Positions 2,824-60,347 of a DNA stretch of 64,000 nucleotides are shown here, one piece after another. Numbering within the stretch: the stretch's first letter is position 1; each line of letters opens with the position of its first letter. Location: positions 64,001 through 128,000 of the IMG/VR virus record IMGVR_UViG_3300048591_000242; one strand, 5' to 3'. Origin of the DNA: a virus. Its lineage: Duplodnaviria; Caudoviricetes. Position numbers and translations under genes: made by a program. The notes below the pieces were generated by a model, which was not told the DNA's origin, searched no databases, and saw only the letters and a list, made by a program, of their open reading frames with translations.

Positions 2824-2862
2824 CTACAGACATCCTTAACGGGGTGTCTGTAGCGTATGCTG
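2824..2862 (+). terminator. hairpin + TATGCTG element
   Basis: CTACAGACATCC/GGGTGTCTGTAG stem, TATGCTG at 2856-2862. Confidence 0.65.
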
Positions 2863-2873
2863 TATTTTTAAAA

Positions 2874-2883
2874 TATATATTAC
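2874..2883 (+). promoter_or_regulatory. putative early promoter TATATATTAC
   Basis: Recurrent intergenic motif that matches the phiKZ early-promoter core TATATTAC. Confidence 0.6.
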
Positions 2884-2913
2884 CATAACAGACAAGACTT
2901 GTAGGAGAGTGTT

Positions 2914-3312
2914 ATGGTAGCAAATATAGGTATAAACGTACACATAGGTAAGTTCAAAAAGGCTATAGCAGATAAGGTATTAGATTATAAAGACGCTATT
3001 TATTTAGGCTTTATAGATATTCTAGTATGTACATACTCTGAAGAATCCATGAAAGAAATACCAGTATATCCCTTGGATAGAAGTCATAGTCCGTTAGCTG
3101 TTTTACTGGACATTGAGTTAGAGGCATTAAACGCAGGTATGGCCCCTAGAATGGCTAAGAACGTAAGTTCTCTATTTAGGCTATTTATGGACTCCTGTAC
3201 CGAGTCTCCTCCTAGGACAGTGAGTTATAGTTGTACTAGAGGCAGCGACGGTACATTACTTATTTATACCAAACTAAATGGAATCTACGTTTCTTTTAAA
3301 TTCTCATATTAA
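2914..3312 (+). CDS. hypothetical protein
   Basis: ORF with RBS AGGAG, downstream of the promoter motif. Confidence 0.7.
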   Translation: MVANIGINVHIGKFKKAIADKVLDYKDAIYLGFIDILVCTYSEESMKEIPVYPLDRSHSPLAVLLDIELEALNAGMAPRMAKNVSSLFRLFMDSCTESPPRTVSYSCTRGSDGTLLIYTKLNGIYVSFKFSY

Positions 3313-3328
3313 CCACAGGGGTATTTGT

Positions 3329-3721
3329 ATGTCTAGGGCGGTGCTTAAGGTAATTATGCGTGAACTAAAGGAGAACATCATAAAAGGAGAAGAGGCAAAG
3401 GAAAAGGAATATCTTTTAAATGAAATAGATCTGTGGCTTTCCACTATAACTGAAGATAACCTTAACAAAGAATTAAATAGTAAGGTTCGTTATATAAAGG
3501 ATATATCCAACCTTACCACCACCATAAAAACCGAATTTGAATCTGTCGATATAGACAAGGATGTGGCTGATAAAGCTTCCTGGTATGTAGATCAGTTATT
3601 AACCTTAATGCTATTGCATGCGGACGTTATCGGCTACAGCATAGTCAGTAGTATCAGATATAAGTCGGTTACGTTACGTATACTTACCGATAAATTCGTT
3701 GTAGTGCTTAGGTTTATCTAG
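3329..3721 (+). CDS. hypothetical protein
   Basis: Track ORF 3278-3721; likely start at MSRAVLK after a GGGG RBS. Confidence 0.6.
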   Translation: MSRAVLKVIMRELKENIIKGEEAKEKEYLLNEIDLWLSTITEDNLNKELNSKVRYIKDISNLTTTIKTEFESVDIDKDVADKASWYVDQLLTLMLLHADVIGYSIVSSIRYKSVTLRILTDKFVVVLRFI

Positions 3722-3791
3722 TATGAGGGAAGGGTCAAAAATAACAAACTTTGGTTATAGTTTGCTACATTAATCGTTAAGAGGAGGTTAA

Positions 3792-4028
3792 GTGAAATCA
3801 CTAATCGGGTTCTCTAAAAAGATATTGTCCAATCATGTATGGACAGTTTTTTTAATATCTTTAGTTTTATTTATCTACAGCGCTATCACTACGATAGCGG
3901 CGGTAACTATGTACTCTAAACTGGATGCACTTAGCTTAGAGAAGGAGAACATAGTCTCTTTAAAAGAGGAATTAGAGGTATGTTACAACAACGAATACAG
4001 TAAACTTCTAACCACATTAAAAGAATAA
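3792..4028 (+). CDS. membrane protein with C-terminal coiled coil (possible i-spanin-like)
   Basis: GAGGAGG RBS, GTG start, TM helix followed by a heptad-like segment. Confidence 0.55.
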   Translation: MKSLIGFSKKILSNHVWTVFLISLVLFIYSAITTIAAVTMYSKLDALSLEKENIVSLKEELEVCYNNEYSKLLTTLKE

Positions 4029-4043
4029 ACGGGTATAGTAATC

Positions 4044-4442
4044 GTGAAAAAAACAATACTAGCTGCTTTACTGGTAACTACAACTACCAGTTGCAGCGTC
4101 ATAAGGGTAGAGCCAGAGCCCTTACTTAGTCCACAGCCAATAAATATCTCAATAACCTTACAGATCGAAGAGGCAGATCGTCCGGTAGTTCAAGCAGCAT
4201 CAGATCCACCAGCAGTAATGGAAAAGATAGTAACCAAAATAGAGTATGTATCTAAACCGGTGTGTACACACCTTAAAGATATATACTCCCTAGAGCCATT
4301 TACATTAGAAGAAATCTCTTTAAATGGTGAAGCGGATAGATTGCGTTATCTTAAGTTACTTATAGATAGGGTAAATCTAGTGGATGGTATTATTGCAGGG
4401 GCTAATAACAATGTCGAGTGCAGAAAGCAGTTACAAAAATAA
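4044..4442 (+). CDS. putative lipoprotein (possible second o-spanin-like)
   Basis: MKK + hydrophobic stretch + TTSC lipobox-like signal, Pro-rich N-terminus. Confidence 0.55.
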   Translation: MKKTILAALLVTTTTSCSVIRVEPEPLLSPQPINISITLQIEEADRPVVQAASDPPAVMEKIVTKIEYVSKPVCTHLKDIYSLEPFTLEEISLNGEADRLRYLKLLIDRVNLVDGIIAGANNNVECRKQLQK

Positions 4443-6294
4443 AATAATAGTAATGGACTGGATTAATGGCACGGTTACGGAGTATGCCGATTTAGAAGAA
4501 GCTTCTAAAGGGACTGGGTTATCCCTAGAGGAAGTTAAAAATGCTTCTAGTAGAAACAAAGCTATTATTTATAGGGATTTGGTTATCTACAAGGAGGGTA
4601 CTGCCCATAGTAGAACCAATATAATTAAAGCGACTGCTAAGTTAAAGGAGCTTCCTATAGAAAGATCTTTGGTCTATCAGCAGGAAGGTTCCAGTAAGTG
4701 GTATATAAAACCACTTAAAGACATAGCTAGATGTGTAGAGGTAGATCCTACACAACTAATGAAGAAAGTAAAAGAGGTTTCCCCTAAACCGCTATCTGGC
4801 AAATATATACGGGAAATTTGGGAAGTCGACTTAACTGAAACAGAGGCTATATTAGTGGGTAAATGTGATCACGGTGGGATGGATTTATCGGAAAAAGATT
4901 CGGTGTTTCAGAATACCCTAAACAATACTCCTTTACCGGGAGAAGTAGCTTCTGAAATTACTTTCTATGTAGACGGTTCTACCGCCCCTACTAACCCTGG
5001 CCCATCAGCATTTGGGATATGGGGAGAGGATAGCAATGGCAACTTCTACAATAGTTGGGGATATGTAGGGGACATGGAGACTAATAACCGAGCAGAGATG
5101 TTTGGCTATATACGTCTACTCGAATCCGTGCTACATTACGGATGGAAAAAGGTAACTGCATTTTTTGATAGTAAGTATGTATTAGATAATGCTACTCGTA
5201 GTTTACCTAGATGGAAGAACAACGGTTGGAAGAAGGCAGATGGTGATATTATTTCCAATCGGGAGCAGTGGGAGAGAATAGCCACATTACAAGAAGCAGT
5301 TAAAGCCATGGGCATAACTGTAACTCATCGCTGGGTAAAAGGACATAGTGGTGATCCAGGTAATGAAGCTGCCGATGTAAATGCTAATAAGGGTAGAATG
5401 GCTGGCTTAGCAGGTAATACCGACCCTGTGTTTCTTATAGAAGAAGCTAAAGTAGGAGAAGAAGAAACCTCTAAGATTAAGAAAGTTAAGATACCGCCTT
5501 GCAATAAACTTATTAATGGTAAGCGACTTATCTTTACTACCAAGACACCGCCTTGTACCGCAGATGGCAGATTCATATACCTTGTAAACTCATTTGAGGG
5601 AGGTGTAGAAAAGACCGGTAGATTTATAGGTAAGCCTGCCAGCGATAACATGTATGGCGTAGTACTTACTAAGGAACCTATCCCACAGCTACAAGCTATT
5701 ATTTCTTATCAGAACAAAATTACTCCTGGAGACTTTGTACAACCAGTAGTAGGTATTCTAGATAGAATAGTAAGACCAGCTAACTGGGAGATGCTTACTA
5801 CTTATGGCAATACCCATTTATGTCATAACCGATTAAACATAACCACCGTAGATAAGGAGCCACTTACTCTATATCAAAGACCCGCTAGATTAGCCTATGA
5901 TGCTATAAACATTCTATCAGTTATGCTAGATAGATTAGAGCGATTTATGTCTAACGTCAAATATCAGTCTGAGGATTACGTAGATATAACCGATAGCATA
6001 TATACCGTTAGCGGTAAGAAGATATCTTTACTAAATACCATAGGTAGTGGATCTAAGTCTATAAACATAGATCTAGACTATCGCGGTAAGAAGTTAACTT
6101 TAGCGTTATCTTTGGGTATAGATTTACCTGATAGAAATAGCTTAAGTGGTATAGCTAAACAGAATAAGGAAATTACTGTAAGCTTACTTAGATATGACTC
6201 TGGCGCTGCCGGTTTCAGATATGCAGTGGCATTTAAAACAGAAAACGATTACGCTCTATATAGTACGTCAATGGCTAACATCAAGGCAGTATAA
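4411..6294 (+). CDS. rnhA: ribonuclease HI (phiKZ gp155-like) with N-terminal extension
   Basis: RNase H motifs 'FYVDGS', 'TNNRAEM', 'FFDSKYV', 'WKNNGWKKADG..ISNREQW', 'WVKGHSGDPGNEAAD'; the start position is uncertain. Confidence 0.9.
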   Translation: MSSAESSYKNKIIVMDWINGTVTEYADLEEASKGTGLSLEEVKNASSRNKAIIYRDLVIYKEGTAHSRTNIIKATAKLKELPIERSLVYQQEGSSKWYIKPLKDIARCVEVDPTQLMKKVKEVSPKPLSGKYIREIWEVDLTETEAILVGKCDHGGMDLSEKDSVFQNTLNNTPLPGEVASEITFYVDGSTAPTNPGPSAFGIWGEDSNGNFYNSWGYVGDMETNNRAEMFGYIRLLESVLHYGWKKVTAFFDSKYVLDNATRSLPRWKNNGWKKADGDIISNREQWERIATLQEAVKAMGITVTHRWVKGHSGDPGNEAADVNANKGRMAGLAGNTDPVFLIEEAKVGEEETSKIKKVKIPPCNKLINGKRLIFTTKTPPCTADGRFIYLVNSFEGGVEKTGRFIGKPASDNMYGVVLTKEPIPQLQAIISYQNKITPGDFVQPVVGILDRIVRPANWEMLTTYGNTHLCHNRLNITTVDKEPLTLYQRPARLAYDAINILSVMLDRLERFMSNVKYQSEDYVDITDSIYTVSGKKISLLNTIGSGSKSINIDLDYRGKKLTLALSLGIDLPDRNSLSGIAKQNKEITVSLLRYDSGAAGFRYAVAFKTENDYALYSTSMANIKAV

Positions 6295-6302: not shown

Positions 6303-6342
6303 TATACACCGTGTCAAAAGACACGGTGTATAGTTTATGCTG
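6303..6342 (+). terminator. hairpin + TATGCTG element
   Basis: 13-bp perfect stem TATACACCGTGTC/GACACGGTGTATA, TATGCTG at 6336-6342. Confidence 0.7.
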
Positions 6343-6384: not shown

Positions 6385-6828
6385 ATGGTACTGACTAAAA
6401 AAGAAGCTATAGACAGGCTTTCCAATAAAAATAATTTTACCGTATCCGTATTAGCAGACACACCCTACGGATCTAAAATAATTTGTCCGATTACAAGTGG
6501 TATATTGGTTAAAGCCAATATACAGCACGATGAAAATCTAATAGTAGGCTCCGTAGTGCAAGTCCCTACCGGTATAGTACTTATTCCTAATACTGGTAAT
6601 ATACGTGACCTAGAGACTCTTAGCTTGGTTATGGATTATACTAAGGCAGATGTAATAAGAAACTGTGGGATAAAATCCAGGGCTGCTCATCTCAGTAACA
6701 CAGGTGAGATAATTGTAACTGTGGAGTTCGTAGGAGAGTTTGCTGCTACTCTAAAATACGGTACCTCTTTAGGTAGGTGCCTGGTTACTGATACGGTTAG
6801 GTATATACCGGAGATGAATGTTGGATAG
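6385..6828 (+). CDS. degenerate dUTPase-like protein
   Basis: 'VQVPTGIVL', 'IKSRAAH', 'NTGEIIV' and 'LKYGTSLGRCLV' echo trimeric dUTPase motifs, but canonical residues are missing. Confidence 0.45.
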   Translation: MVLTKKEAIDRLSNKNNFTVSVLADTPYGSKIICPITSGILVKANIQHDENLIVGSVVQVPTGIVLIPNTGNIRDLETLSLVMDYTKADVIRNCGIKSRAAHLSNTGEIIVTVEFVGEFAATLKYGTSLGRCLVTDTVRYIPEMNVG

Positions 6829-6831
6829 AAT

Positions 6832-6875
6832 GCATATGTACACTGGTATCCCACTAGGGATACCAGTGTATGCTG
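6832..6875. terminator. bidirectional hairpin element between convergent genes
   Basis: 14-bp stem TACACTGGTATCCC/GGGATACCAGTGTA flanked by GCATA and TATGCTG. Confidence 0.75.
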
Positions 6876-6886: not shown

Positions 6887-7735
6887 TTATTTTAAATCAG
6901 CCAGTAGTTTATCTACACTATCATTGAATGCGGTTTGCAGCGTAATGTAGTTAAAGTTAGCTATGGATAACAACTCTAGCTCGTTGGCTATAGCAGTTAC
7001 AGTCTCGGCTAGCTGTTTTATGGTGTGTTTGTTTTGCGTAACTATTTCAGGGTGTTCCTGAGCTGTCTTTACATAGAGGTTTATTGCTGTCTCTAAGTCT
7101 TTTTCTGCCTGGAGTATTTTACTGTAATCTATTTTTTTAGCTACAGACTCACCCTGCTGAACAGCTATACCAGTTTTTAATACATCTTTGTTAGATACAA
7201 ATACTTCTCCGAACTTAACGGTATCTATATCTCTATTTCTATTTACTTTAGGGTCAAAGAAACTAGAGAGTACCTTTACCTCAGACTTAACGTCAATCGG
7301 TTTTAAGTTTTTATCTATCCATAGCTTGGATGAGAAGTCGTTCACGCTAACCGCTTTATTTAGATAAAGGGCCATTGGTATTAAGAGTCTTTTGTCAATA
7401 TCTGACATACGCTCCAGTAGGTCAGATAGGTACGTAGCATAGGGTAGTAGGTTATCAGTAAAACCCACTGGCTGGTACACCAGAATGTTCTCTACGGCTT
7501 TATATTCAGTTTTAGAAAGCACCTTATCTAAATCAGATACCTTCCTAGTTGTCGCAGAAATAGTACCGGATTTAGCAAAGCTGGAAATAGCTTCTACGGT
7601 TTTACCTAAACCCATTCGGCTTACAAAAGAAGACAGAAATTCCGTAAAGGTACTGAAACCTTCCATACCTAATTCTGCCATTAGTGCAGTGTGTTTAAAC
7701 TCATTACTGATAGACTGGATGTGTAGATTTTTCAT
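6887..7735 (-). CDS. virion (internal head) protein, probably processed by the prohead protease
   Basis: N-terminal S/A/G-x-E sites ('ISNE', 'GMEG') typical of processed head proteins in phiKZ-like phages. Confidence 0.55.
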   Translation of the reverse strand: MKNLHIQSISNEFKHTALMAELGMEGFSTFTEFLSSFVSRMGLGKTVEAISSFAKSGTISATTRKVSDLDKVLSKTEYKAVENILVYQPVGFTDNLLPYATYLSDLLERMSDIDKRLLIPMALYLNKAVSVNDFSSKLWIDKNLKPIDVKSEVKVLSSFFDPKVNRNRDIDTVKFGEVFVSNKDVLKTGIAVQQGESVAKKIDYSKILQAEKDLETAINLYVKTAQEHPEIVTQNKHTIKQLAETVTAIANELELLSIANFNYITLQTAFNDSVDKLLADLK

Positions 7736-10850: not shown

Positions 10851-11549
10851 ATGCATACACAAAAGCATAAGGTATTTGTGGGATTAGACTGTCTTATGGA
10901 TACTAGACTTGCGGCTTTGGGTAGATACTCCCCAAAGATAGCGGAGGAGTTACTTCTATCCGGTAAATACCATACTAGAAAACACAATAGGTTCGATAAG
11001 TATATAGAGTCTGTGGATCAAAGGGCAGTAGATGACATATACAAAAACCGTGATGTTACTTTACTACAGGAATCCGTTATAACTCCTATAGTACTTATGT
11101 TATCCGATATGGCGGATAGATATAAAGAAGTATCCGCAGGGCATCCAGTACCTATGGTTATGTCTTTAATAGTAAACACTAACCCATATGTTTTAGATAA
11201 AGAACTAACTGAAACATTTCGTGAAGTACTACTAGATGCCATAGGGGCTGAATCCGTTAAATTCTGTAATTTACCTATAGAGCTTATGACGCCTTCCTAT
11301 CTATCTAGTTACGATACAGTAGTTTGGAATGAACTGGATGCGTGGGTTACATTACATCACAAGGAGTTAGCTACTAAGAAAATGGCTGAGGTTACTATGT
11401 ATTGCCCAGAGATACATGTTAATCCAGATGTAGATACATCAGGCGTACATCCTTTAGCTCCAGCTAATGAACTTAGAATGCTACTCATCGAGTATGTGGG
11501 TTTTGAGATTCTACCCTTAGAGCTATATAGTGCCGTAAGACCGACATAA
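10851..11549 (+). CDS. conserved jumbo-phage hypothetical protein (N-terminal 'LDCLMDTRL', HAD-like)
   Basis: ORF with RBS AGGAG; DxxxD-type N-terminal strand. Confidence 0.6.
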   Translation: MHTQKHKVFVGLDCLMDTRLAALGRYSPKIAEELLLSGKYHTRKHNRFDKYIESVDQRAVDDIYKNRDVTLLQESVITPIVLMLSDMADRYKEVSAGHPVPMVMSLIVNTNPYVLDKELTETFREVLLDAIGAESVKFCNLPIELMTPSYLSSYDTVVWNELDAWVTLHHKELATKKMAEVTMYCPEIHVNPDVDTSGVHPLAPANELRMLLIEYVGFEILPLELYSAVRPT

Positions 11550-11591
11550 GTATATACCCAGTCACCGATCTGGTGACTGGGTAATATGTCG
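11542..11591. terminator. bidirectional hairpin with TATGTCG on both strands
   Basis: CGACATA - stem TACCCAGTCACC/GGTGACTGGGTA - TATGTCG, between convergent genes. Confidence 0.75.
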
Positions 11592-14150: not shown

Positions 14151-14166
14151 TCTATATACCTCTATG

Positions 14167-14194
14167 TCTCTCTGGGCTATATAGCCCAGAGAGA
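14167..14194. repeat. perfect 28-bp palindrome (probable terminator hairpin)
   Basis: TCTCTCTGGGCTAT|ATAGCCCAGAGAGA. Confidence 0.7.
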
Positions 14195-14227
14195 TTATAT
14201 AGCCCCCTATTCTTTTTATTGAGGTTT

Positions 14228-15331
14228 ATCATGAGATCACCTTTAAAACCTTCTGTGTTTAGTACAGCTCCAGAGGATGTATCTGAAGTAGTAGACGTAT
14301 ATTCCAGCAATGAGGTAAAAGAAGCTTCAGTGCCTAATACGGTAAAAGCTTTACAGACTAAGAGGAATGAAGACCTACCTACCTCACCAAGTAAAACCAG
14401 TAAAGCAGTAGAAAAAGAAGCTGTAGCTATACATACCAAAAAGATACTGTCTTCTAACCTATCTCCTAATGAGAAGGTACAACATTTAGATGAAAAGGCA
14501 AAGATTTCAGACTATTTAGCTACTGGAGCCAGTTCTAATAAAATAGTAAATATGTTAGATACTCCTCTGCCTAAAAATATAGAGCCCTACGACTTTTTAA
14601 AGAGGGTCGGTAGTAACTCCTTCATAGATGTCAAAAACAGCTTAGCGGCCACCTCAGGGGGCTTGCTGGGCGAGGATTACTCAGAGCTTATGCCCGCTGA
14701 CCTAACTACCTATATGGATCAAGCTTTAGCCTTTATGGATTTAGCCGAATTAAATCACCTATTGTGTCCAGGGGAACTACTTACCGGCAACCATATATCT
14801 ACCGCTTTACGCACTGGAAAAGGCATGATAGATATACGTAAGTACATAGGCTGTAACAAAGGTAAGCCCACAATAGACTTTACCGGCATACAGAGTGAAT
14901 ATTTACCTACAGCGGTACGCTCCCATGTAAATGCTGCTGCCGACGTAGGTGCCTACGACGTTATGGTGGATGTACTAAACGATACTCAGGAAGTGGCACA
15001 CACTGCTGCCTATAAAAAGGAAGTAACGGATAAACTATTATCCAACTACAAGCATAAACCAAAAACTTCTCAAAGTGATCACGCTAATAACGGTACTGAC
15101 TTTGTAGATGCATTGCTTACTATGGATGATAGCTGGGGTAGCTACAATAGAGACGGCTCTACAGTAAGCGATATCTCAGTGTTCTCTAAGGCCTCTCCAG
15201 ATGCTCTAGATGTATTAGCGGCAGACCCTAGAACGTCACAGGATGCTTTAATAGCTAAAGATATTTCTGTAAAGAAAACTAGTTATAAGGAACATGCTTC
15301 TAATACCTATCCTCTATTAAAAACAGCATAA
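14228..15331 (+). CDS. probable virion structural protein
   Basis: About 367 aa ORF next to the tail genes; GAGG RBS before ATG 14228. Confidence 0.55.
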   Translation: MMRSPLKPSVFSTAPEDVSEVVDVYSSNEVKEASVPNTVKALQTKRNEDLPTSPSKTSKAVEKEAVAIHTKKILSSNLSPNEKVQHLDEKAKISDYLATGASSNKIVNMLDTPLPKNIEPYDFLKRVGSNSFIDVKNSLAATSGGLLGEDYSELMPADLTTYMDQALAFMDLAELNHLLCPGELLTGNHISTALRTGKGMIDIRKYIGCNKGKPTIDFTGIQSEYLPTAVRSHVNAAADVGAYDVMVDVLNDTQEVAHTAAYKKEVTDKLLSNYKHKPKTSQSDHANNGTDFVDALLTMDDSWGSYNRDGSTVSDISVFSKASPDALDVLAADPRTSQDALIAKDISVKKTSYKEHASNTYPLLKTA

Positions 15332-15375
15332 AGCATACTCTAGTACACCACATGGTGTACTAGAGCGTTATGCCG
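15324..15375. terminator. bidirectional hairpin element
   Basis: CAGCATA - CTCTAGTACACCA/TGGTGTACTAGAG - TATGCCG, between convergent genes. Confidence 0.75.
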
Positions 15376-38877: not shown

Positions 38878-39363
38878 ATGGATATAACTACACTGCCAAT
38901 CGAATATGCTGTGATTTTGCTATTCTTGTTTGAAATAATTGGTTGGGTCATCCCATATAGAGGTGATTCTCCGGTATGGGCCAAACCAGGCTTATATACG
39001 GTAGCAGCACTAATAATGTTTAAGTGGATTATATTTTCTGGTATAGTCTACTGGATAGAGGGATTCCTTACCAGTACTAGCATATCCGCTCTGTGTATAT
39101 TTAATGTTTTAAACCCATACTTTTTACTGTATGGAGGTGTAGCCATACCGCATGGGCATCATAACCATAAGAAGATACATAGCGCATACAAACACATGTT
39201 ATCCATTATGTCTATACTAGTTACTGTATCTGTAATTCAGTATATATACACTTATGATGTGATGCCGTGGGCTCACGTGTATGTTAATATATTTTTAATA
39301 TACATAACGTTTGCAGTGCCACCTAGGCAATTAATAAAGTCTCAGCAGCTAGTGTATTTATAG
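38878..39363 (+). CDS. multi-pass membrane protein
   Basis: 4-5 hydrophobic segments and a His-rich loop 'PHGHHNHKKIH'. Confidence 0.65.
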   Translation: MDITTLPIEYAVILLFLFEIIGWVIPYRGDSPVWAKPGLYTVAALIMFKWIIFSGIVYWIEGFLTSTSISALCIFNVLNPYFLLYGGVAIPHGHHNHKKIHSAYKHMLSIMSILVTVSVIQYIYTYDVMPWAHVYVNIFLIYITFAVPPRQLIKSQQLVYL

Positions 39364-39371
39364 CATAGTTT

Positions 39372-39411
39372 CTCTATACAGGACAAATGTCCTGTATAGA
39401 GCTTTATGCTG
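39372..39411 (+). terminator. hairpin + TATGCTG element
   Basis: 13-bp stem CTCTATACAGGAC/GTCCTGTATAGAG. Confidence 0.7.
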
Positions 39412-40878: not shown

Positions 40879-40887
40879 GGGGGTTTT

Positions 40888-41250: not shown

Positions 41251-41263
41251 GAGGTAATGTAAT

Positions 41264-41644: not shown

Positions 41645-41647
41645 ATA

Positions 41648-41698
41648 CAGCATAAGTACACTAGTACCCAATAAGGGTACTAGTGTATGCTTATGCCG
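41648..41698. terminator. bidirectional hairpin element
   Basis: CAGCATA - TACACTAGTACCC/GGGTACTAGTGTA - TATGCCG, between convergent genes. Confidence 0.75.
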
Positions 41699-41699
41699 T

Positions 41700-42554: not shown

Positions 42555-42566
42555 TGTACTTTACTC

Positions 42567-44606: not shown

Positions 44607-44659
44607 AATGAAACACCTCTGTATTTAAATTGGTTAATAATCATAATTAAGGTTTCCTA

Positions 44660-45667: not shown

Positions 45668-46091
45668 CTTAAATACCTCGCCAATACACATAGTATTGTT
45701 CGTGGCGCAGCATTTATATTTTTAATTTACAAAAATGACTTACCTCCGTATTCGGAATAACGGTACTATTAAACGCCACAGAATAATTTTTTGCGGTGGT
45801 TCATTATATCGCTATATCTGTTACAGAAATTATATCCTCATAAGAGGACATGTTCCTCTGTTGGGTTTATTACAAATTTGACTGTGATCGCAGTCGGGTA
45901 TTCTAATTCAAGACAAGTTATATCAACACAATATTCGTTTAAATATATAGATGGTAACTTCAAACGTAAGAAGCCAAAAATATACCATCCGACATAGTAC
46001 TTACATTGATTTTATAGAATCGTATGTTAAATGCATGTCGAAATGTGCATACTATTTTGTTTAGCGATATAACCACCGTGGAGTATTAGAA

Positions 46092-47015
46092 ATGGGCCCG
46101 TATGAAACCCGTATAAACAGTCAGTACAGAAATCAACTCTCTGACGTAAAAAAGGCAATAGAAAAACAAACGGCCATGGGGGAAGATCGGTTTTTTGTTT
46201 CTTTAGGTAAATACGTACGTATGCCTAAATATGACAATGATACTCTACCACACTGGTCACACCCTTTTGTAATGGGCGGCACCGTATATATGGATGCCAG
46301 ACCATTTATGAATAAGGTTGGTGGTATAAAGAACCACGTAGAATATGACCTTATGCGTAGACGCGCTGTTTTAGAGTATTTGTGGAAAGACGATCCTGAA
46401 ATATTTGAAAGGTTAATGCCGGATATGGTGGTGGTATTTGCTGAGTGGTATACAGGCGGCATCTCTAGTAGATACAACGCCAGTGAGGTAGATCGCTCTA
46501 GATTTAAAGTAGTGGCTGCTTCTTACTACGTATGGCTTATACTTACTCAGGTACAAAACGGTAAGGTAAGTAAAGAAGACGTTAGAAACATTACAGCTAA
46601 AATACTTAGCCGGACAGGTGGCATGCCAGCCAACTATGTATTCGACGTATTAAACGATATGGATACATTGGAGTTATTGGAAGGGGCCTATCCGGATATC
46701 GACAGGCTGGCTAGAAATACAAAGGCTATGGCTACCTTTGACATGGGTGACTTTACTGCTATAGCGGCTATGCAGCTAATGAGCAGTGGCAGTTGGATAG
46801 GCGTTAATAACGTAATGCTGTCGGCTATGGCGCTCGAACATCCGCCCTTGTTTTTGGTACTTATAGCTGGCTCACATGCAATCTCTGGTTATAGAAACAA
46901 AACCAGAATCGGTAGAGCAGTAAACAGTATGGGTAGAAAGATAAACCCAGAATCACTTAACACAACCTTAATTCGGCTAGTTGACGAATACGCTGCTGTA
47001 ATAAGGACGTCATGA
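46092..47015 (+). CDS. virion structural protein (phiKZ gp28-like by synteny)
   Basis: Divergent from the sheath gene; 'ALEHPP' motif. Confidence 0.6.
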   Translation: MGPYETRINSQYRNQLSDVKKAIEKQTAMGEDRFFVSLGKYVRMPKYDNDTLPHWSHPFVMGGTVYMDARPFMNKVGGIKNHVEYDLMRRRAVLEYLWKDDPEIFERLMPDMVVVFAEWYTGGISSRYNASEVDRSRFKVVAASYYVWLILTQVQNGKVSKEDVRNITAKILSRTGGMPANYVFDVLNDMDTLELLEGAYPDIDRLARNTKAMATFDMGDFTAIAAMQLMSSGSWIGVNNVMLSAMALEHPPLFLVLIAGSHAISGYRNKTRIGRAVNSMGRKINPESLNTTLIRLVDEYAAVIRTS

Positions 47016-47040
47016 ACAACAAATCAGAGTAGGCTTTTGT

Positions 47041-49587: not shown

Positions 49588-49628
49588 TTATTAGTTAGGC
49601 GGCATTGTCTGCTGCTTGGAGAATTAAC

Positions 49629-51305
49629 ATGAGTAATATGGTGTTTCGTAGAGACCCAAATAGAGGTTTTAGGGTTTGGTCGCAGCACGAAGTATATATA
49701 GGGGAATTGGGTGTTACTACCGGTACTCTATATATACCGAATGTAAACGATTTGGTTGTTAACCCAAACGGTATTATCTATCAGGTAAAGGAAGTGGATG
49801 AGGCCAGTGGGTTGCCTACACTTGAAGTTATAAATGGTAAAGATGCTAATTCTGGTATAACTGACCCAGACAGTTTGCCTGAAGGACTGCGTAACTATCA
49901 GCCACATGGCATAAATCGCATTTTCATAGATACTAGCGTATCACCTTCCATTATTTCGGTGGATTCTAGATACCGTATATATGGCAGTGAAACTACGCAG
50001 GCTAAACTATTTAAAGGTACTGACATTAGTACCAGTGGTGAGGTTATATCACACACCTTAAACAGTAGCGGTGTAGTTGTATCTGAGATGATTGCTTTGG
50101 TACCTTTATTCGATGGCAATACTACGATTAAACGTCCGGCCAGATTCCATACTACGGCTGAGTTGGCGGATGGTGAGTTAGTTACTCTGGTAATCTACAA
50201 TGCTAGTGGGCGGGTATCAGGTACCCACCCGTTTATTGTTAGAAATGCCAATACCATAAGTGGGCCTACCGCTAGTAACATTTACATAGTAGATGTAGAG
50301 TTAGTAGGTGATCTTATTTCTGACGAAAACCCATTGCTAATCGAAAACCCATTGCATGTGCCATTCCAGACAAACATGTTGTTTGCTAGAATACACTATA
50401 GTAATGGTGATTATGCCGACCATGCAATAGACGGTAATAAGATAAAGTTACATGGAGTATCTGGGTTTAATACTAGTATAATTGGTCCTAGCAGTAACGT
50501 GGTGTTAAGTTATTATCCGGATAGCACTGAACCGGCTATAAACCTACAGGGTAGCATACATCCGTCCATTAGTAAGACATATAGACTTACTAATATAATG
50601 GCGTCTACTGATCTAGCGCTGAAGCTATACGTTATTCCAGTATGGACAGGTTCAGGCTATGTACTTAAATTCAGACTTACTGATCTTGAGTATCTAGCTA
50701 ACCTGGATGTTACTGACTTAGTGACAGTTTCTAGATCCGATGGTACTGCCTTTAGAGGTAATGACTACGGTAGAGAGCAAACAGTAAACGTATATCTGGA
50801 TTTGTCTAGAATTAACCCTAACCAGAATCCACCACACACTCACGTACAGCAATTTAAGATAACTCTTAATGCGCCAGGCGGTTTAAGTGTAGATAATTAC
50901 GTTATCGACTACGGTGGTGACGGTATGACCTATTTCGGTGCCGGACACTATGCTACTGCCTCCTTAACATATACCCACAAGTTTAAACTGGATATTAACC
51001 AGACTAGCCTTGAAGATTGGAAATCGTGGTTATATAGAACACTTGATCCTATCTTCGATAACTCTGTAGATACTGAAGCACCAGAACCCACACACTTCAG
51101 ACTGGAGCATGGTGGCGTTAATGGCGGCAGGCTAATAGGGACATACGACATCTCTCAATGGGATGACGAGTTTGAGTTAGGCACAGAAAGGGAATGGGAA
51201 CAGGGTTATCCTTTAGTAGTAACCTTTATAGTTAGAGTCAGTGGCACAGACAAGATACTTGGTGTGGCTCCTTTGGCTATTAAGTATATTTACTCTGGAT
51301 CATAA
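49629..51305 (+). CDS. virion structural protein (phiKZ gp26-like by synteny)
   Basis: Beta-rich; GGAG RBS before MSNMVFRRDP. Confidence 0.6.
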   Translation: MSNMVFRRDPNRGFRVWSQHEVYIGELGVTTGTLYIPNVNDLVVNPNGIIYQVKEVDEASGLPTLEVINGKDANSGITDPDSLPEGLRNYQPHGINRIFIDTSVSPSIISVDSRYRIYGSETTQAKLFKGTDISTSGEVISHTLNSSGVVVSEMIALVPLFDGNTTIKRPARFHTTAELADGELVTLVIYNASGRVSGTHPFIVRNANTISGPTASNIYIVDVELVGDLISDENPLLIENPLHVPFQTNMLFARIHYSNGDYADHAIDGNKIKLHGVSGFNTSIIGPSSNVVLSYYPDSTEPAINLQGSIHPSISKTYRLTNIMASTDLALKLYVIPVWTGSGYVLKFRLTDLEYLANLDVTDLVTVSRSDGTAFRGNDYGREQTVNVYLDLSRINPNQNPPHTHVQQFKITLNAPGGLSVDNYVIDYGGDGMTYFGAGHYATASLTYTHKFKLDINQTSLEDWKSWLYRTLDPIFDNSVDTEAPEPTHFRLEHGGVNGGRLIGTYDISQWDDEFELGTEREWEQGYPLVVTFIVRVSGTDKILGVAPLAIKYIYSGS

Positions 51306-51314
51306 TGGATTTGT

Positions 51315-51584
51315 GTGGCTATGAAAAGTAAAATAAATAAAAAGGGTGTTAAGCTTGTAAGACATGCTAGTGGTGAAAAGCTAGCTTTTGGGCCAGTACA
51401 ATGGCTTAAAGTAAAACCGGTTATTGCTAATGAGTTGTCTAAATGCAATAGCAAGGCTGAACTGCTCCATGCCACTAAAGATATTTTAGGTGGTATCTAT
51501 GGTAGAGATGTAGCTATCATAAAAATGGTAGATGCAGCAGTATCCAGACTAGGTAGTTCTTCAAGGGAAACACAGGAAGCATAG
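51315..51584 (+). CDS. hypothetical protein
   Basis: 89 aa ORF. Confidence 0.55.
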   Translation: MAMKSKINKKGVKLVRHASGEKLAFGPVQWLKVKPVIANELSKCNSKAELLHATKDILGGIYGRDVAIIKMVDAAVSRLGSSSRETQEA

Positions 51585-51600
51585 TTGTAAGTAAGTCTAT

Positions 51601-51643
51601 AGTCATAGATCCGGCGTTTGTCTGGATCTATGACTGTATGCCG
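51601..51643 (+). terminator. hairpin + TATGCCG element
   Basis: AGTCATAGATCC/GGATCTATGACT stem, TATGCCG at 51637-51643. Confidence 0.7.
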
Positions 51644-51661
51644 TATGTTTACTATAACTTA

Positions 51662-51684
51662 AGGTATATATCACTATAGTAGAA
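51662..51684 (+). promoter_or_regulatory. putative early promoter AGGTATATATCACTATAGTAGAA
   Basis: Identical to 40225-40247. Confidence 0.75.
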
Positions 51685-51716
51685 ACTTTGCTTATAGTAA
51701 CTATTGGAGAATAGTC

Positions 51717-52445
51717 GTGGGTAGAAAAAAAGAAGTTGTGGTTGTAAACACGTACGATCAGATGGTTTATATATTTGAGAGTCTAGGTAGTACCATAGAA
51801 GGGGCTAAGCGGTTAGAATTGCCAGGGGCTAATGAGAAAGGATTCGCTACTACAGTAACAAAGATATTGGGTGGTAAGGAGAATAACGAACCAAATGCCA
51901 TATTGGAGTTCTATTACATAGAGGACTACGATAAACATGTAAAGACCTTAAGGTCATGGTGGAAAGGCACTGAGATATTCCTAACGCTTACTGACGATGA
52001 TAGCGTCTTTATATTTCCAGATAAAGCTGCTTTAATGAATTATTTACGAGCTGTATTCCCTAATAGGGAAGGAATGGGTTCTTTAGAAAACATGGAAATG
52101 GATGGAGTTATAATTAATCTTGGATACAACTGTGAAGCCGAGATTGATGATATGAAAAGCATTGTCGATAGCTATGGTAATGGGTGGAATATATTTACCA
52201 GTCAGGCTATGGCTGCTTTAGGTGGCGACAAGATAACATCACCCGTGGGTTTATGTAACAACGGAGATGAGGAATATCTGGCCTTCGATCCATACGCCTC
52301 AGTTAGGATACACAAATTCGCAGAGGGTAAATATGTTACTCGTGAGTATATGAATGTATTGGAGGCAGGTATAGCAGAGGATACGTGTGTGTCAGTCATA
52401 GTAGTAGAAATGTTAAATACCCCTGAAGTAGTCTATAGTAGGTAA
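51717..52445 (+). CDS. hypothetical protein
   Basis: GGAG RBS, GTG start, downstream of the promoter motif. Confidence 0.7.
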   Translation: MGRKKEVVVVNTYDQMVYIFESLGSTIEGAKRLELPGANEKGFATTVTKILGGKENNEPNAILEFYYIEDYDKHVKTLRSWWKGTEIFLTLTDDDSVFIFPDKAALMNYLRAVFPNREGMGSLENMEMDGVIINLGYNCEAEIDDMKSIVDSYGNGWNIFTSQAMAALGGDKITSPVGLCNNGDEEYLAFDPYASVRIHKFAEGKYVTREYMNVLEAGIAEDTCVSVIVVEMLNTPEVVYSR

Positions 52446-52508
52446 AATGTGAATTGTGTGTAGTCAGCCGCCGTTGACTATGTATATCCCAGACATAGGT
52501 AAAAGATC

Positions 52509-53021
52509 ATGGGACTCGTATACCTGTACAGGCACACACGGAGTATTATTACACTACTACTCCTTAAAATATCTAAGCTATTAAACATACACTTTAGTAG
52601 TTTAGATAGGTGGGGCTTCAATAGACATACTAACCATACAAAGGCTATGGCTTGTCTAGACGATGAGAAATTGGCGGACTGCATAATAGCAGTTAGGGGC
52701 GATAGTAAGCCAGACAAAATTATAGCTCTGGCAGCGGGATGGGCATACATTTTAAACAAGAAACCTTCTGACATTAGGATTATAAAGTCTTATGTTAGAT
52801 TTGTTATAAAACAAAAGCCTATTCTGGATAGTGATTACTTTATGCTTATGTCGTTACTAGATACTACTACCTTTTATCTACCGGAAAAGATAGTTAGAGC
52901 TTTAATATCTAGTAGTGATTTATCCTACGAAGAAATGGATATCGTATTAGCGGATAAAGGCATTAAGTTAGAGAGAGCCTCATTGTTATATAGTGGGGAT
53001 GTTAGGTGGCTCGGTAGATAA
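52509..53021 (+). CDS. hypothetical protein
   Basis: 170 aa ORF. Confidence 0.55.
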   Translation: MGLVYLYRHTRSIITLLLLKISKLLNIHFSSLDRWGFNRHTNHTKAMACLDDEKLADCIIAVRGDSKPDKIIALAAGWAYILNKKPSDIRIIKSYVRFVIKQKPILDSDYFMLMSLLDTTTFYLPEKIVRALISSSDLSYEEMDIVLADKGIKLERASLLYSGDVRWLGR

Positions 53022-53124
53022 TAAACGCAGATACTCGGTATATCCGGGTATCTGTGATTTATGCATTTATTTATTTTTTCCTATAATAATTTATAAAACA
53101 ACCACAATAACTGGGGTATTTGCA

Positions 53125-55269
53125 ATGACAATTTTGTATGAGGCCGATTGGGGTAAATACCCGTCAGCTATAATAGATACAAAAACTACTAATACTAGTT
53201 TTCTACGACTAGCCAGTGTTTATAACCGGATGTCTGTGAAAAATAATGCGTTTCATCTTAGTTTATTACAGCCTAAACTACAGGGAGTAAATCCATTTGA
53301 TCCAGATTTAGATGAAGAAACCCAGCTAATGATAGCTCTGGAGTGCAGATGGAACCTGTGGTATTGTCTAAGAGAAATTATTCATCTACCCCCACAGGGT
53401 GGACCTAGCCCTATTCGCTATAAAGCCAACAGAGGTAACATAGCGCTTAGCTGGGCATTCATGAACCACATAGATTTTGCATTAATACAGCCACGACAAA
53501 CAGGTAAGTCAGGCTCTACAGACTCACTGTGGATAACAGTAATGAATCTGATGGCCACCCACACCACAATACAGTTACTTACCAATAACGATAAGGTTAG
53601 AAAATCTAACATAGACCGTTTAAAGGGCATACGAAATGAGCTACCTCAATATCTAAACCCTATTTCTAATATGGATTCTGATAACAAAGAAGGTTTGACC
53701 TGTTTAGCTAGAAATAACATCTACAAAACAGCCATAGGTAGAACCGATAGAACGGCAGCGGATGGTGTAGGTCGTGGTTTAACTTCACCTATACTGCACT
53801 CCGATGAAACTCCCTATACACCAAACATACAGATAAGCTTACCCGTAGCACTATCCTCTGGTACTGCGGCCAGAGAAAACGCTAGAGCGGCTGGAGGCTT
53901 ATATTGTAACGTATTTACTACTACTGCTGGTAAAAAAGATTCAAAGGAGGGTAAGTTTGCGTATAATCTAATTCACAACGGTATGTACTGGAATGAAAGA
54001 CTGTTGGATTGTAGAGATAGGGAAGAGTTAGAGAATGTAATACTAAAGAACTCACATGGCGACAAGCCTATGATAAATGGTACCTTCAGCCACAGACAGC
54101 TAGGTTATACTGACGGATGGTTAAAGGATGCCATAAATAACTCTCGCTCCAGTGAGGACTTGGCTAATCGAGATTATTTAAACATATGGACTAGTGGTAC
54201 TGAGTCTAGCCCTTTAACCATAGCCATTAACGAAGCTATACATAGGTCTGAAATAGACCCCATGTACACCGAAATGACTAAGGACGGATATCAGCTAAGA
54301 TGGTATTTACCTAAGGAAGATATACTAAAGGTATTAAATGACGATCCGCATTTAATAACCTTAGATAGTAGTAATGCAGTAGGTAAGGATGCTAACGGAT
54401 TAACCTTTATAAATGCTACCGATATGTCCATTACTGCCACATCAAACGTATCTGAAGCTAACCTATTTAGGTATGCTAAATGGATTACCGACTTACTCAT
54501 TATGTACCCTAAGACCATCTTTGTTATAGAAAACAAAAGCTCTGCTCAGGGTATAATAGATGTATTACTAACTATACTTCCAAAGCACGGTATAGATCCA
54601 TTTAAAAGGATTTATAACAGACTAGTAGAGAACTCTGAGAAGTATGCAGAAGCCTTTGCTGAGCTTAAGAGGCCCGTACATAGTAGAAAGGAAGAGTTCT
54701 ATTTAAAGAACAAAGGTCTATTCGGTTTTATGACTTCTGGTAATAGCAGATCCTTTTTATATGACACCGTCCTACAGCAGGCAGCTAAGATGTCAGCACA
54801 TCTAATACGAGATAGGGTACTATCTAGTGAGATACGTGGCCTGATAATGGTAAATGGTAGAGTAGATCACCCAGCAGGGGCACATGACGACTTAACTATT
54901 TCATGGCTATTGGGACATTACTTTGTTTCACATTCTAAAGGACTTAAGCACTATGACATAGATCTTTCTTTGGTATTATCTAGAGCCATAGATGATTCTG
55001 CTGAAATATCTGAAATAGATGCTGAGAAGCGAGCTAGAGTAGCTAAGCTTAGATTAGAGGTAGAGTCTTTAAAGAGAATGTTAAAGACGGCTATTACACC
55101 CATAGAGGGTAATCGAATAGAGTGTCTACTTAGACAAAGGGTATCTACTTTAGAGCTAGAGACAGGTCAGAGCATAAACTTAGATAGCATAATAAATGAA
55201 GCTAAGGAGATTAAAAACAAATCTACCTCTTTAAGGGATGCAATAAAGAGGTACGCTATATCTAGATAA
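53125..55269 (+). CDS. terminase large subunit (phiKZ gp25-like)
   Basis: Walker A 'PRQTGKS', Walker B 'SDET', 'TTTAG', nuclease motifs 'LDSS', 'IENKS', 'HDDL'; likely start MTILYEADW. Confidence 0.92.
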   Translation: MTILYEADWGKYPSAIIDTKTTNTSFLRLASVYNRMSVKNNAFHLSLLQPKLQGVNPFDPDLDEETQLMIALECRWNLWYCLREIIHLPPQGGPSPIRYKANRGNIALSWAFMNHIDFALIQPRQTGKSGSTDSLWITVMNLMATHTTIQLLTNNDKVRKSNIDRLKGIRNELPQYLNPISNMDSDNKEGLTCLARNNIYKTAIGRTDRTAADGVGRGLTSPILHSDETPYTPNIQISLPVALSSGTAARENARAAGGLYCNVFTTTAGKKDSKEGKFAYNLIHNGMYWNERLLDCRDREELENVILKNSHGDKPMINGTFSHRQLGYTDGWLKDAINNSRSSEDLANRDYLNIWTSGTESSPLTIAINEAIHRSEIDPMYTEMTKDGYQLRWYLPKEDILKVLNDDPHLITLDSSNAVGKDANGLTFINATDMSITATSNVSEANLFRYAKWITDLLIMYPKTIFVIENKSSAQGIIDVLLTILPKHGIDPFKRIYNRLVENSEKYAEAFAELKRPVHSRKEEFYLKNKGLFGFMTSGNSRSFLYDTVLQQAAKMSAHLIRDRVLSSEIRGLIMVNGRVDHPAGAHDDLTISWLLGHYFVSHSKGLKHYDIDLSLVLSRAIDDSAEISEIDAEKRARVAKLRLEVESLKRMLKTAITPIEGNRIECLLRQRVSTLELETGQSINLDSIINEAKEIKNKSTSLRDAIKRYAISR

Positions 55270-55271: not shown

Positions 55272-55324
55272 CAGCATAGTACTCTAGTACTCCTACGCGG
55301 AGTACTAGAGTATGCTTTATGCCG
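55272..55324. terminator. bidirectional hairpin element
   Basis: CAGCATA - TACTCTAGTACTCC/GGAGTACTAGAGTA - TATGCCG, between convergent genes. Confidence 0.75.
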
Positions 55325-55663
55325 TTATTTTCTTACGTTACTTACTAAACCATTAAAATAGTTACGTATGGTAGTTACTACGGATTTACTTTCCTCTACC
55401 TGCTGCGGCGTATGCTTGAGCTTTAGCTGCTCTCTATCTATACCGCAAGCTACGCCAATCTCAATACGCATCGCATCTATTGTGTCTTGTAATGTAACTA
55501 AGTCGTTATATACCTCACGCATGTTAATCACTCCGGGTATACATGGATGGGTAGAAGTCCACCCATTGGCTTTGGCTATCTTAATGTTTCTACCCAATAA
55601 AGCCATATCGGCTAGAATTGTTGTTGATATTTTATTTATGTTATAAACATTTACTGTTTTCAT
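55325..55663 (-). CDS. hypothetical protein
   Basis: 112 aa ORF. Confidence 0.6.
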   Translation of the reverse strand: MKTVNVYNINKISTTILADMALLGRNIKIAKANGWTSTHPCIPGVINMREVYNDLVTLQDTIDAMRIEIGVACGIDREQLKLKHTPQQVEESKSVVTTIRNYFNGLVSNVRK

Positions 55664-58428: not shown

Positions 58429-58611
58429 TGCCTAACTCCGTTTGAGTATAAAATGCGTTATATATAATCGCTGTAGCTATGTATTTTGTTAATTGTATAT
58501 AGAGGCTATATAGTGTTAAAAATAACTATATAGATGAATAGTACGACGGCAGGGAAAACGGGCTACAGCTAATAGCTGGCCCAACTTCCCGTATGTTTTT
58601 ATGGAGGCTTT

Positions 58612-59100
58612 ATGTTATCTGGTAAGAAGTCAGTAGCTCTTAAGGGCAAATATGACATTAGGGCCATACTAAAGGAAGGGCCTTTAAATAAGCTATCTAT
58701 AGATGAAGTTATGGATAACGTAAACATAACCGCAGCCATTATAGATACTTATACTCTTGTACTGCAAAACTGTGAATCAGTGAATTTGTATGATTTTACA
58801 AATGACACCCTAGAAGTACCTGAAGTAATTATAAGAATGTGTGAGAGGGTTATATTCCCTACAGTAGTAAAGTCGAAGATGGTATCTATAACCAACAGTA
58901 CCATACATGTAGAAGAGCCAAAGAAACTACATATAAGCGGCGATCTAATATTAACCGACTCTATATTTACTGGAGGAGGAGAGGTTATTGTAAATGGTAC
59001 AGTATATGCCGATGATGTTAGTTATACCAAAATACCGGAATGGAACATACGCTATAATAAGCTAGTAGACGTAGGTAGTACTAACAGAATACAAACATAA
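58612..59100 (+). CDS. hypothetical protein
   Basis: GGAGG RBS. Confidence 0.7.
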   Translation: MLSGKKSVALKGKYDIRAILKEGPLNKLSIDEVMDNVNITAAIIDTYTLVLQNCESVNLYDFTNDTLEVPEVIIRMCERVIFPTVVKSKMVSITNSTIHVEEPKKLHISGDLILTDSIFTGGGEVIVNGTVYADDVSYTKIPEWNIRYNKLVDVGSTNRIQT

Positions 59101-59106
59101 GCTTTA

Positions 59107-59141
59107 TACCTATCCCGTTCTGGGGATAGGTAATTATGCTG
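59107..59141 (+). terminator. hairpin + TATGCTG element
   Basis: TACCTATCCC/GGGATAGGTA stem, TATGCTG at 59135-59141. Confidence 0.65.
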
Positions 59142-59221
59142 TATTTTAGATTCAACATTTATTCAGATATATATTAAAGTAATAGAGCAACAATGCTTTT
59201 AGTTACTAGAGGTATTTGATT

Positions 59222-59353
59222 ATGCAAGAATTCAAGAAGAATAAGGCTATACTGGAAGAACGAGCTTTGGCATATAAGGATATAAAGAAACACAAACACT
59301 GCATGCATAGTACTATAGTGCGTGCAAACAGAAACAAGTACAAAACCATTTAA
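59222..59353 (+). CDS. small basic protein (43 aa), not in the ORF track
   Basis: GAGGT RBS; a promoter-like AGATATATATTAA lies at 59165-59177. Confidence 0.55.
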   Translation: MQEFKKNKAILEERALAYKDIKKHKHCMHSTIVRANRNKYKTI

Positions 59354-59386
59354 TCCAATAAGACTTTAAGTCTAGGAGAATTTATT

Positions 59387-59827
59387 ATGTTTACTGCATC
59401 TTTATGTTTAGCACTTTCAGCACTGTTTGGTTTGGCTCTTACCCTTAAAAGATTCATGGGACTAGTTAACCGAAGAACAGTGACTAAAGTTACGCTGCTA
59501 AATCTTGTAACCTCGAGTATTTTATTAGCGTTTGAAGGCGGAACTAACCCACTCATTGTATTGGGCCTTATTATGCCGATGGTGGCTCTACCTATAACTC
59601 TGGACAATATCTTAAAGGATAACATGAAAATGTTTGTTCGTTATGCCATATTTCCTGTAGCAGTGATGGTAATAGGCATAATAAATTTATGGTTGACCGG
59701 CTATGAGCCTATAGCACTGACTCTGTTCTTTGCGTTAGGGTTAGGGGTTGTGCTAAATACGGTTGGCTCTAGAGCTAGAGCAGAAAACGCAATTGCCGTG
59801 GCAAGACAAGTATACTTTGAAATTTAA
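59387..59827 (+). CDS. membrane protein, paralogue A
   Basis: About 5 TM helices; shares GGT(N/D)P, LP..LD.ILK and TG.EP motifs with the next gene. Confidence 0.75.
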   Translation: MFTASLCLALSALFGLALTLKRFMGLVNRRTVTKVTLLNLVTSSILLAFEGGTNPLIVLGLIMPMVALPITLDNILKDNMKMFVRYAIFPVAVMVIGIINLWLTGYEPIALTLFFALGLGVVLNTVGSRARAENAIAVARQVYFEI

Positions 59828-59867
59828 CATAATCCACTGATAGGGTTTTAAACCCAGGAGAATCTCT

Positions 59868-60305
59868 ATGCTAATACCAGCAATTACCTTAACTATCGTG
59901 TACGCGGTTTCATTGTCTATAACCAACTTTATGTATGGACGCATTATAAAACAAGGAATGGTTACCGCTATTACCTTCACAAACCTTATAATTTCATTAT
60001 TGGTAATGACGTTAGTAGGTGGTACCGACCCTATTATAATAATGGGTATGGCATTAGGTGCCATGACGTTACCCTTTCTTATGGATGTAATATTGAAGGG
60101 AAATGTTAACCTATTTATATACTTAAACATGTTGCCTGTAGTAGTTGGGCTGGTAGGCGTAGTACATCTGTGGGGGACTGGTGTGGAGCCTGCTGGATTA
60201 ACTGCCGTAGTGTTATGCGGCTCAGTCTATGTGATATGGCTTGGTATGAAAAAGGACAAGGCTAAAGCTTGTTTATGGCAGGCAAGAAACCTTTATCTTA
60301 GTTAA
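59868..60305 (+). CDS. membrane protein, paralogue B
   Basis: Same length and motifs as 59387-59827. Confidence 0.75.
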   Translation: MLIPAITLTIVYAVSLSITNFMYGRIIKQGMVTAITFTNLIISLLVMTLVGGTDPIIIMGMALGAMTLPFLMDVILKGNVNLFIYLNMLPVVVGLVGVVHLWGTGVEPAGLTAVVLCGSVYVIWLGMKKDKAKACLWQARNLYLS

Positions 60306-60347
60306 CAGCATAGCTATAGTCTACCCATAGTGGGTAGACTATAGCTA
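60306..60347. terminator. bidirectional hairpin element
   Basis: 17-bp stem TAGCTATAGTCTACCCA/TGGGTAGACTATAGCTA, CAGCATA at the left edge; convergent genes. Confidence 0.75.

Follow-up and report, generated by a model that had tools for sequence, protein, structure and literature searches.

One question raised by the DNA analysed here is what a family of long intergenic hairpins, each followed by a TATGCYG box where a terminator would carry a U-tract, does in a jumbo phage. The elements lie between positions 2,824 and 60,347 of a 64,000-nucleotide stretch (hereafter the window), which covers bases 64001-128000 of the single 202,179-bp contig IMGVR_UViG_3300048591_000242 and has 39% G+C. We conclude that they are very probably phiKZ-type transcription terminators of this phage, bidirectional at convergent genes. 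The evidence is the orientation of the box after gene ends, its match to the terminator motif of phage phiKZ and the position of mapped RNA 3' ends in phage 201phi2-1. Judged by its sequence, this uncultured jumbo phage is phiKZ-like, of the nucleus-forming type, and codes for multisubunit RNA polymerases (RNAPs) of its own. Its window proteins are ~25% identical to those of phiKZ-like jumbo phages, and the Pfam matches include phiKZ_gp29PR and DUF7193. A megablast search of the phage collection found no close relative; contigs with 59% amino-acid identity to this phage are present in IMG/VR.

The hairpin and box element at gene ends

The first-pass annotation had listed 14 sites in the window as intergenic 10-17 bp hairpins with a TATGC-type box. 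All 14 carry the expected sequence at the listed coordinates, and all fold as near-perfect hairpins of 10-17 bp, with free energies (dG) of -17.6 to -27.8 kcal/mol and z scores (z) of -4.8 to -7.6; at most 1 in 200 shuffles folds as stably as any of them. The mirrored CAGCATA or CGACATA copies reported at 11542, 15324, 41648 and 55272 are likewise real and stand at convergent gene junctions. With the criteria applied here, no further hairpins came up in the window. The elements are the following (dG in kcal/mol):

2820..2862, + strand: hairpin 2820-2857 (core 2824-2853) and box TATGCTG 2856-2862, after gene 2465-2815, with an early-type promoter TATATATTAC at 2874 and gene 2914 downstream; dG -22.4, z -5.5
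6303-6342, + strand: hairpin 6303-6332 and box TATGCTG 6336-6342, after the RNase H-domain gene 4384-6294; dG -21.0, z -6.3
6830..6875, bidirectional: hairpin 6838-6871 between convergent genes 6385-6828(+) and 6887-7735(-); box TATGCTG 6869-6875 on + (overlapping the stem base), variant TATGCAT 6830-6836 on -; dG -26.5, z -6.9
11542..11591, bidirectional: hairpin 11555-11583 at a convergent junction; box TATGTCG 11585-11591 on +, TATGTCG (CGACATA on +) 11542-11548 on -; dG -22.6, z -6.4
15324..15375, bidirectional: hairpin 15338-15365 between convergent genes 14219-15331(+) and 15378-17462(-); box TATGCCG 15369-15375 on +, double box 15331-15337 and 15324-15330 on -; dG -19.6, z -5.3
35184-35221, + strand: hairpin 35184-35214 and box TATGCCG 35215-35221, after gene 34420-35175; dG -20.5, z -4.8
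36290-36332, + strand: hairpin 36290-36321 and box TATGCTT 36326-36332, before the SMC-like gene 36398-38863; dG -23.0, z -6.6
39361..39411, + strand: hairpin 39372-39401 and box TATGCTG 39405-39411, after gene 38878-39363; partial mirror TATGCTA 39361-39367 on -; dG -20.9, z -6.7
40138-40176, + strand: hairpin 40138-40166 and box TATGCTT 40170-40176, with an early-type promoter TATATATCAC next, at 40228; dG -21.2, z -5.1
41648..41698, bidirectional: hairpin 41656-41688 between convergent genes 41264-41644(+) and 41700-42554(-); double box 41686-41692 and 41692-41698 on +, box 41648-41654 on -; dG -23.7, z -5.9
51598-51643, + strand: hairpin 51598-51638 and box TATGCCG 51637-51643, after gene 51315-51584, with an early-type promoter at 51665; dG -25.3, z -7.4
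55272..55324, bidirectional: hairpin 55279-55313 between convergent genes 52993-55269(+) and 55325-55663(-); double box 55311-55317 and 55318-55324 on +, box 55272-55278 on -; dG -24.9, z -6.5
59093..59141, + strand: hairpin 59107-59132 and box TATGCTG 59135-59141, after gene 58612-59100; weak mirror TATGTTT 59093-59099 on -; dG -17.6, z -5.0
60306..60347, - strand: hairpin 60311-60347 and box TATGCTG (CAGCATA on +) 60306-60312; the + side has only a degenerate CATGCAG; dG -27.8, z -7.6

The box is enriched well beyond these sites. The window contains 40 copies of TATGCYG where 15.4 +/- 4.2 are expected (40 was reached in none of 100 shuffles), and the 202-kb genome holds 96 exact boxes against ~51 expected. 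Intergenic DNA accounts for 33 of these genome-wide, and 29 of the 33 have a strong hairpin on their 5' side. The genome-wide count was made with crude gene calls and an exhaustive hairpin scan in both orientations; as the stems are too unlike in sequence and length for a MAFFT register, hairpins and flanks were scanned directly in Python, with no covariance model.

A total of 58 oriented hairpin and box copies was obtained genome-wide. Their position weight matrix gives the consensus tTATGCYGTAttt, with C at position 5 in 49 copies and a pyrimidine at position 6 in 53. Stems have a median of 13 bp and -20.8 kcal/mol (up to 18 pairs), and the loops are mostly tetraloops of 4 nt. Stems are mixed or AT-rich, typically of the form TAC...CC-loop-GG...GTA, and the inner stem sequences are mostly unrelated. 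In most copies the hairpin begins 3-15 nt past the upstream stop codon. Relative to the last base pair, the first T of TATG is at -3 to +7 nt (mode +3/+4; a single copy at +10), in most copies 1-4 nt past it. The G of TATG falls at +5 to +8 past the stem in 39/58 copies, so that a transcript ending on the next pyrimidine would end ~7-10 nt from the stem.

The usual U-tract is missing. The number of T residues in the first 8 nt has its mode at 3-4 and is at least 5 in 7/50 copies, and the longest T-run is 3 or shorter in 44 of 50 box copies. A standard hairpin and T-run scan of positions 35001-55000 catches one of the six family members on the gene-end strand.

The context of the strong intergenic hairpins, counted in both orientations, bears on the choice between a signal for transcript ends and one for transcript starts. 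When a co-directional gene ends upstream, the box follows 50 of 64 such hairpins (78%), and it does so at 28/34 hairpins with no gene start downstream and at 22/30 with one. Hairpins with no gene end upstream carry it in 8 of 46 cases (two of eight where a gene starts downstream), and those inside coding DNA in 5/86 (6%). The earlier proposal of a directional signal after gene ends is thus borne out. Because the box tracks gene ends and not gene starts, the counts fit a terminator and disfavour a promoter as the main role, which had been offered as the alternative on the grounds that TATG is the core of phiKZ late promoters.

At convergent junctions the box is found on both strands in 12 of 16 cases, with a degenerate copy in the remaining four. 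At tandem junctions (2856, 6336, 35215, 36326, 40170, 51637) it stands on the 3' side only, and nothing on the 5' side is complementary to it. This marks the box as a sequence signal, as opposed to the mere base of a longer palindrome. A box without function of its own could be the base of a palindrome of the form GCATA...TATGC, a DNA-level protein-binding or recombination site, or part of a dispersed mobile repeat; GCATA and TATGC are indeed complementary at convergent junctions and could lengthen the stem, and the hairpins at genome position 9731 and window position 41656 are near-identical. The one-sided tandem copies with mostly unrelated inner stems largely refute this idea, and the box is kept across phages with ~25% protein identity and wholly different stems, which leaves it an almost vanishing probability. 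Both the promoter-only and the plain-palindrome readings were rejected, on the orientation statistics and the one-sided copies.

A more elaborate role for the box would be that of a module with two functions, in which the hairpin terminates and TATG also serves as a late-promoter start of the non-virion RNAP (nvRNAP), with G as +1, for re-initiation or for antisense RNA at convergent junctions. The late promoters of phiKZ (TATG, G = +1; Yakunina et al. 2015, PMC4666361; PMC12809450) do share TATG with the box, the nvRNAP subunit gp123 that binds it on the non-template strand has a homologue here with 10 of 16 pocket residues kept, and at 22 tandem junctions the box is followed by a gene start at a distance of 20-250 nt. 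We nevertheless hold this double role to be unlikely. The box is at least as frequent without a downstream gene start as with one, and is rare where a gene start stands alone. Many tandem junctions have a separate early-type promoter, TATATAT(T/C)AC, 20-60 nt past the box. The phiKZ late promoter P119L has neither hairpin nor GCYGT; published late promoters need no hairpin and are unconserved downstream of TATG, whereas the box is tied to a hairpin and conserved through GCYGT. The mapped 201phi2-1 sites described below are 3' ends. Divergent intergenic regions were also searched for late promoters; TATG occurs in them, and no clear extended motif was found.

Mapped transcript ends in phiKZ and 201phi2-1

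The same element is already in the literature. In phiKZ, 133 terminators were mapped by ONT-cappable-seq (Putzeys et al. 2024, microLife, PMC10914365), and 61 of these transcription termination site (TTS) regions share the motif 5'-BCCYCCCCHWWDGGGRRGGBYTTATKYYGT-3', a hairpin followed by a TTAT region; most copies were classed as intrinsic terminators by ARNold. In 201phi2-1 a closely similar motif A (n=59) was described together with 15 bidirectional TTS, and eight terminators, multi-motif ones included, work in a terminator trap in uninfected P. chlororaphis (PMC11512511). The hairpin with TTATGYYGT can also be read directly in the phiKZ sequence between 100 and 150 kb. The elements of the window are hence not the new candidate class that the first-pass annotation had taken them for: they carry the hairpin and YTTATKYYGT published for the 61 phiKZ terminators and resemble motif A.

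The likeness extends beyond the motif. As in phiKZ and 201phi2-1, (T)TATKYYGT comes within 1-4 nt past a stable hairpin, the elements are placed behind gene ends and work in both directions between convergent genes, early-type TATATTAC promoters are often located 20-60 nt further downstream, and both a phiKZ-type virion RNAP (vRNAP) and an nvRNAP are encoded. The orientation of the box after gene ends and its match to the phiKZ terminator motif are direct observations in this phage.

The 201phi2-1 paper prints eight TTS coordinates, of which six were placed on NC_010821 (84756, 132419, 183876, 189851, 229201 and 230027). All six fall within the box on the + strand, each directly after a GC-rich hairpin and 8-10 nt past the stem. 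With the end base in brackets, the sequences are TTTATGC[T]GT, TTTATGT[T]GT, TTTATGA[C]GT, TTATATG[C]CG, TTTATGC[C]GT and TTTATAC[C]GC. In five of the six, this base is a pyrimidine with the conserved G immediately after it; the exception is 189851, where a C follows. A small RNA of phiKZ, whose boundaries are printed in Putzeys 2024, has its 3' end at 270485(-), which corresponds to a hairpin and TTATAT[T]. The offset between transcript end and box is not stated in the main text of either paper. The expectation that 3' ends would map to the motif therefore holds in the relatives, with the six 201phi2-1 ends lying within the box.

These positions allow a mechanism to be proposed. A long stable RNA hairpin would form just past the stop codon, and the box (T)TATGCYG(T), 1-4 nt past it, would replace the usual U-tract. 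By analogy to 201phi2-1, the last base of the transcript would be the box pyrimidine that precedes the conserved G (UUAUGCY|G), at 8-10 nt from the base of the stem. The A/U-rich UUAU would weaken the RNA:DNA hybrid, and the Y|G step would halt the polymerase long enough for hairpin-driven release of the transcript. At convergent pairs a single hairpin with a box on both strands would serve both genes.

The elemental pause of multisubunit RNAPs has the consensus formula G-10/Y-1/G+1. Its core is a pyrimidine 3' end with an incoming G, a general point made in PMC6336406. A hairpin, a distance of ~8-10 nt and release make up the geometry of intrinsic termination, and Y|G is the core of the elemental pause; we therefore infer that the box may act as a pause and release element. 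Published 3' ends on the pyrimidine before the conserved G thus provide a concrete hypothesis that could be put to a cheap in vitro assay with the already purified phiKZ nvRNAP.

The element shares part of its design with a canonical Rho-independent terminator. Both have an RNA hairpin directly after the gene and, in the phage as inferred, release 7-10 nt past the stem, and the 201phi2-1 versions function with the host RNAP in the terminator trap. The difference is the TATGCYG box in place of the U-tract. The spacer is also less U-rich than in phiKZ and 201phi2-1, and most copies would fail a hairpin and U-tract predictor.

Another reading of the mapped ends is RNA processing or stability: the polymerase would read through, an endoribonuclease of host or phage would cut in the A/U-rich box, and the hairpin would shield the new 3' end. 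The preference of RNase E is RN|WUU. The sequence past the box (G-U-A-U-U-U) resembles it, and long-read 3'-end mapping and terminator traps are both blind to the distinction between termination and cleavage plus decay. The strongest conservation, on the other hand, is in TATGC and not in the downstream GUAUUU, the 201phi2-1 ends lie at the classic distance of intrinsic termination, and ARNold calls most phiKZ copies intrinsic terminators. We consider processing very unlikely as the origin of these ends.

Several points weigh against the terminator assignment. The elements of this phage are known from sequence, a search for RNA evidence over window positions 35000-42000 returned no sequencing run, and RNA 3' ends at the box belong to the relatives only. 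ONT-cappable-seq 3' ends are good to a few nt and do not separate termination from processing. The stems are longer and more AT-rich than in phiKZ (TAC...GTA bases), and efficiency could differ. Fourteen gene-end hairpins without exact TATG carry TTATT, TTATC, TATAC or CATGC variants. The Y|G pause, finally, is extrapolated from six coordinates of one relative and from the general behaviour of multisubunit RNAPs. As to the stem, the stems of this phage do not follow the GC-rich CCYCCCC/GGGRRGG consensus of phiKZ; it is treated here as a lineage trait and not as a defining one, stems being different also in Goslar, RAY, Eowyn and Xoo-sp14, which have the box.

Distribution of the box and the phage polymerases

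Samples of other chimalliviruses, of 17-50 kb each, were scanned for the box. It follows gene-end hairpins in Xoo-sp14, Klebsiella phage Eowyn, Erwinia phage RAY and E. coli phage Goslar, and is partly present in RSL2, PhiEaH1 and the IMG/VR relatives. In these IMG/VR relatives (59% amino-acid identity) the junction equivalent to 55272..55324 has an unrelated long hairpin. Three phages lack it in the 30-42 kb that were sampled: in Vibrio phage BONAISHI, Salmonella phage pSal-SNUABM-04 and the SPN3US-like SPLA1a, the hairpins at gene ends carry T-runs or are without a shared tail. The box thus persists across phages with proteins only ~25% identical, while the stems differ completely. That it is kept across very distant chimalliviruses while the stems are replaced suggests that a component of the conserved transcription machinery reads it. 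In practical terms, the boxes can be used at once to chart where transcription units end in an uncultured jumbo phage whose proteins are ~25% identical to those of cultured ones.

Multisubunit RNAPs of the phiKZ type are encoded in this genome. The window open reading frames 25158-26786 and 27639-31925 match the 201phi2-1 virion RNAP subunits gp275 and gp273/274, respectively, with 35-43% identity, and a homologue of the phiKZ nvRNAP subunit gp123 lies outside the window, at genome 5681-7276 (28% identity overall). The first-pass annotation had proposed a termination or RNA-processing signal specific for a phage RNAP; the role at 3' ends stands, and the specificity does not follow, as the 201phi2-1 versions act in the uninfected host. 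Specificity for a phage RNAP is accordingly unproven, and for the relatives it is partly contradicted.

One proposal is that the non-template TATGCYG of the box is read by the same beta-lobe pocket of gp123 that recognises the TATG of late promoters, so that the U-tract would be replaced by a function encoded in the polymerase. The beta-like nvRNAP subunit gp123 binds non-template TATG at late promoters (Chen et al. 2026, PMC12809450). The pocket is better kept in the homologue of this phage than the protein as a whole, with 10 of the 16 residues reported to bind TATG against 28% overall identity, the highest value among the distant homologues compared. The spread is small, however: identity to the 16 phiKZ residues is 10 in this phage, 8 in Goslar, 7 in RSL2, 7 in RAY and 6 in SPLA1a. 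This comparison took in six phages, among them this phage, Goslar, RSL2 and RAY, with the box, and the SPN3US-like SPLA1a, with a sample in which the box is absent; BONAISHI and pSal-SNUABM-04 were left out. Weighing on the proposal are the early-promoter units that end at boxes too, and the activity of 201phi2-1 versions with the host RNAP. We rate it as quite unlikely. If it were true, one protein pocket would mark both transcript starts and, after a hairpin, the pause and end.

A separate observation concerns host-type promoters. Sigma-70-like promoter matches are depleted in window positions 35001-55000, with 34 against 62 +/- 8 in shuffles, as would fit transcription that does without the host RNAP.

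Early-type promoters and canonical terminators

Hairpins with a T-run at ~25100, 27726 and 40851 had been named as a separate class of canonical terminators. The three are real and distinct from the box family, and the genome holds 13 such terminators alongside the 58 with a box. The phiKZ-type early promoter motif TATATATTAC (with at most 1 mismatch) has 61 matches in the genome, 29 of them in the intergenic 8%. The promoters in the window lie 28-124 nt upstream of start codons, at the following positions:

2874
12068
12037, - strand
23796
26799
40228
51665
58457, - strand
61291

The first terminator after an early-type TATATATTAC promoter was canonical for 8 of the 13 canonical terminators and boxed for 11 of the 58 box terminators (Fisher p = 0.004, odds ratio 6.8). 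Canonical terminators close short units, with a median length of 978 nt versus 3301 nt. Three of these units lie in the window:

promoter 23796 to canonical terminator 25126
promoter 26799 to canonical terminator 27746
promoter 40228 to canonical terminator 40872

This pairing of promoters and terminators is built on crude gene calls and is a lead. The bias may come from the virion RNAP preferring different terminators, or the short units may be moron-like cassettes. Units with an early-type promoter also end at box terminators, e.g. from promoter 2874 to terminator 6303-6342.

Two strong gene-end hairpins of the window, at 1285-1309 and 14166-14195, are without the box. In one, TTTATG forms part of the loop and a tail motif is missing; in the other, TATATAG comes after the hairpin.

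Two bidirectional terminators, window 41656-41688 and genome 9731-9764 (outside the window), have near-identical stems and flanks (..acagcataaGTACACTAGTACC..GGTACTAGTGTATgcttatgc..) and differ in their loops. The shared stems suggest duplication of a terminator module or gene conversion.

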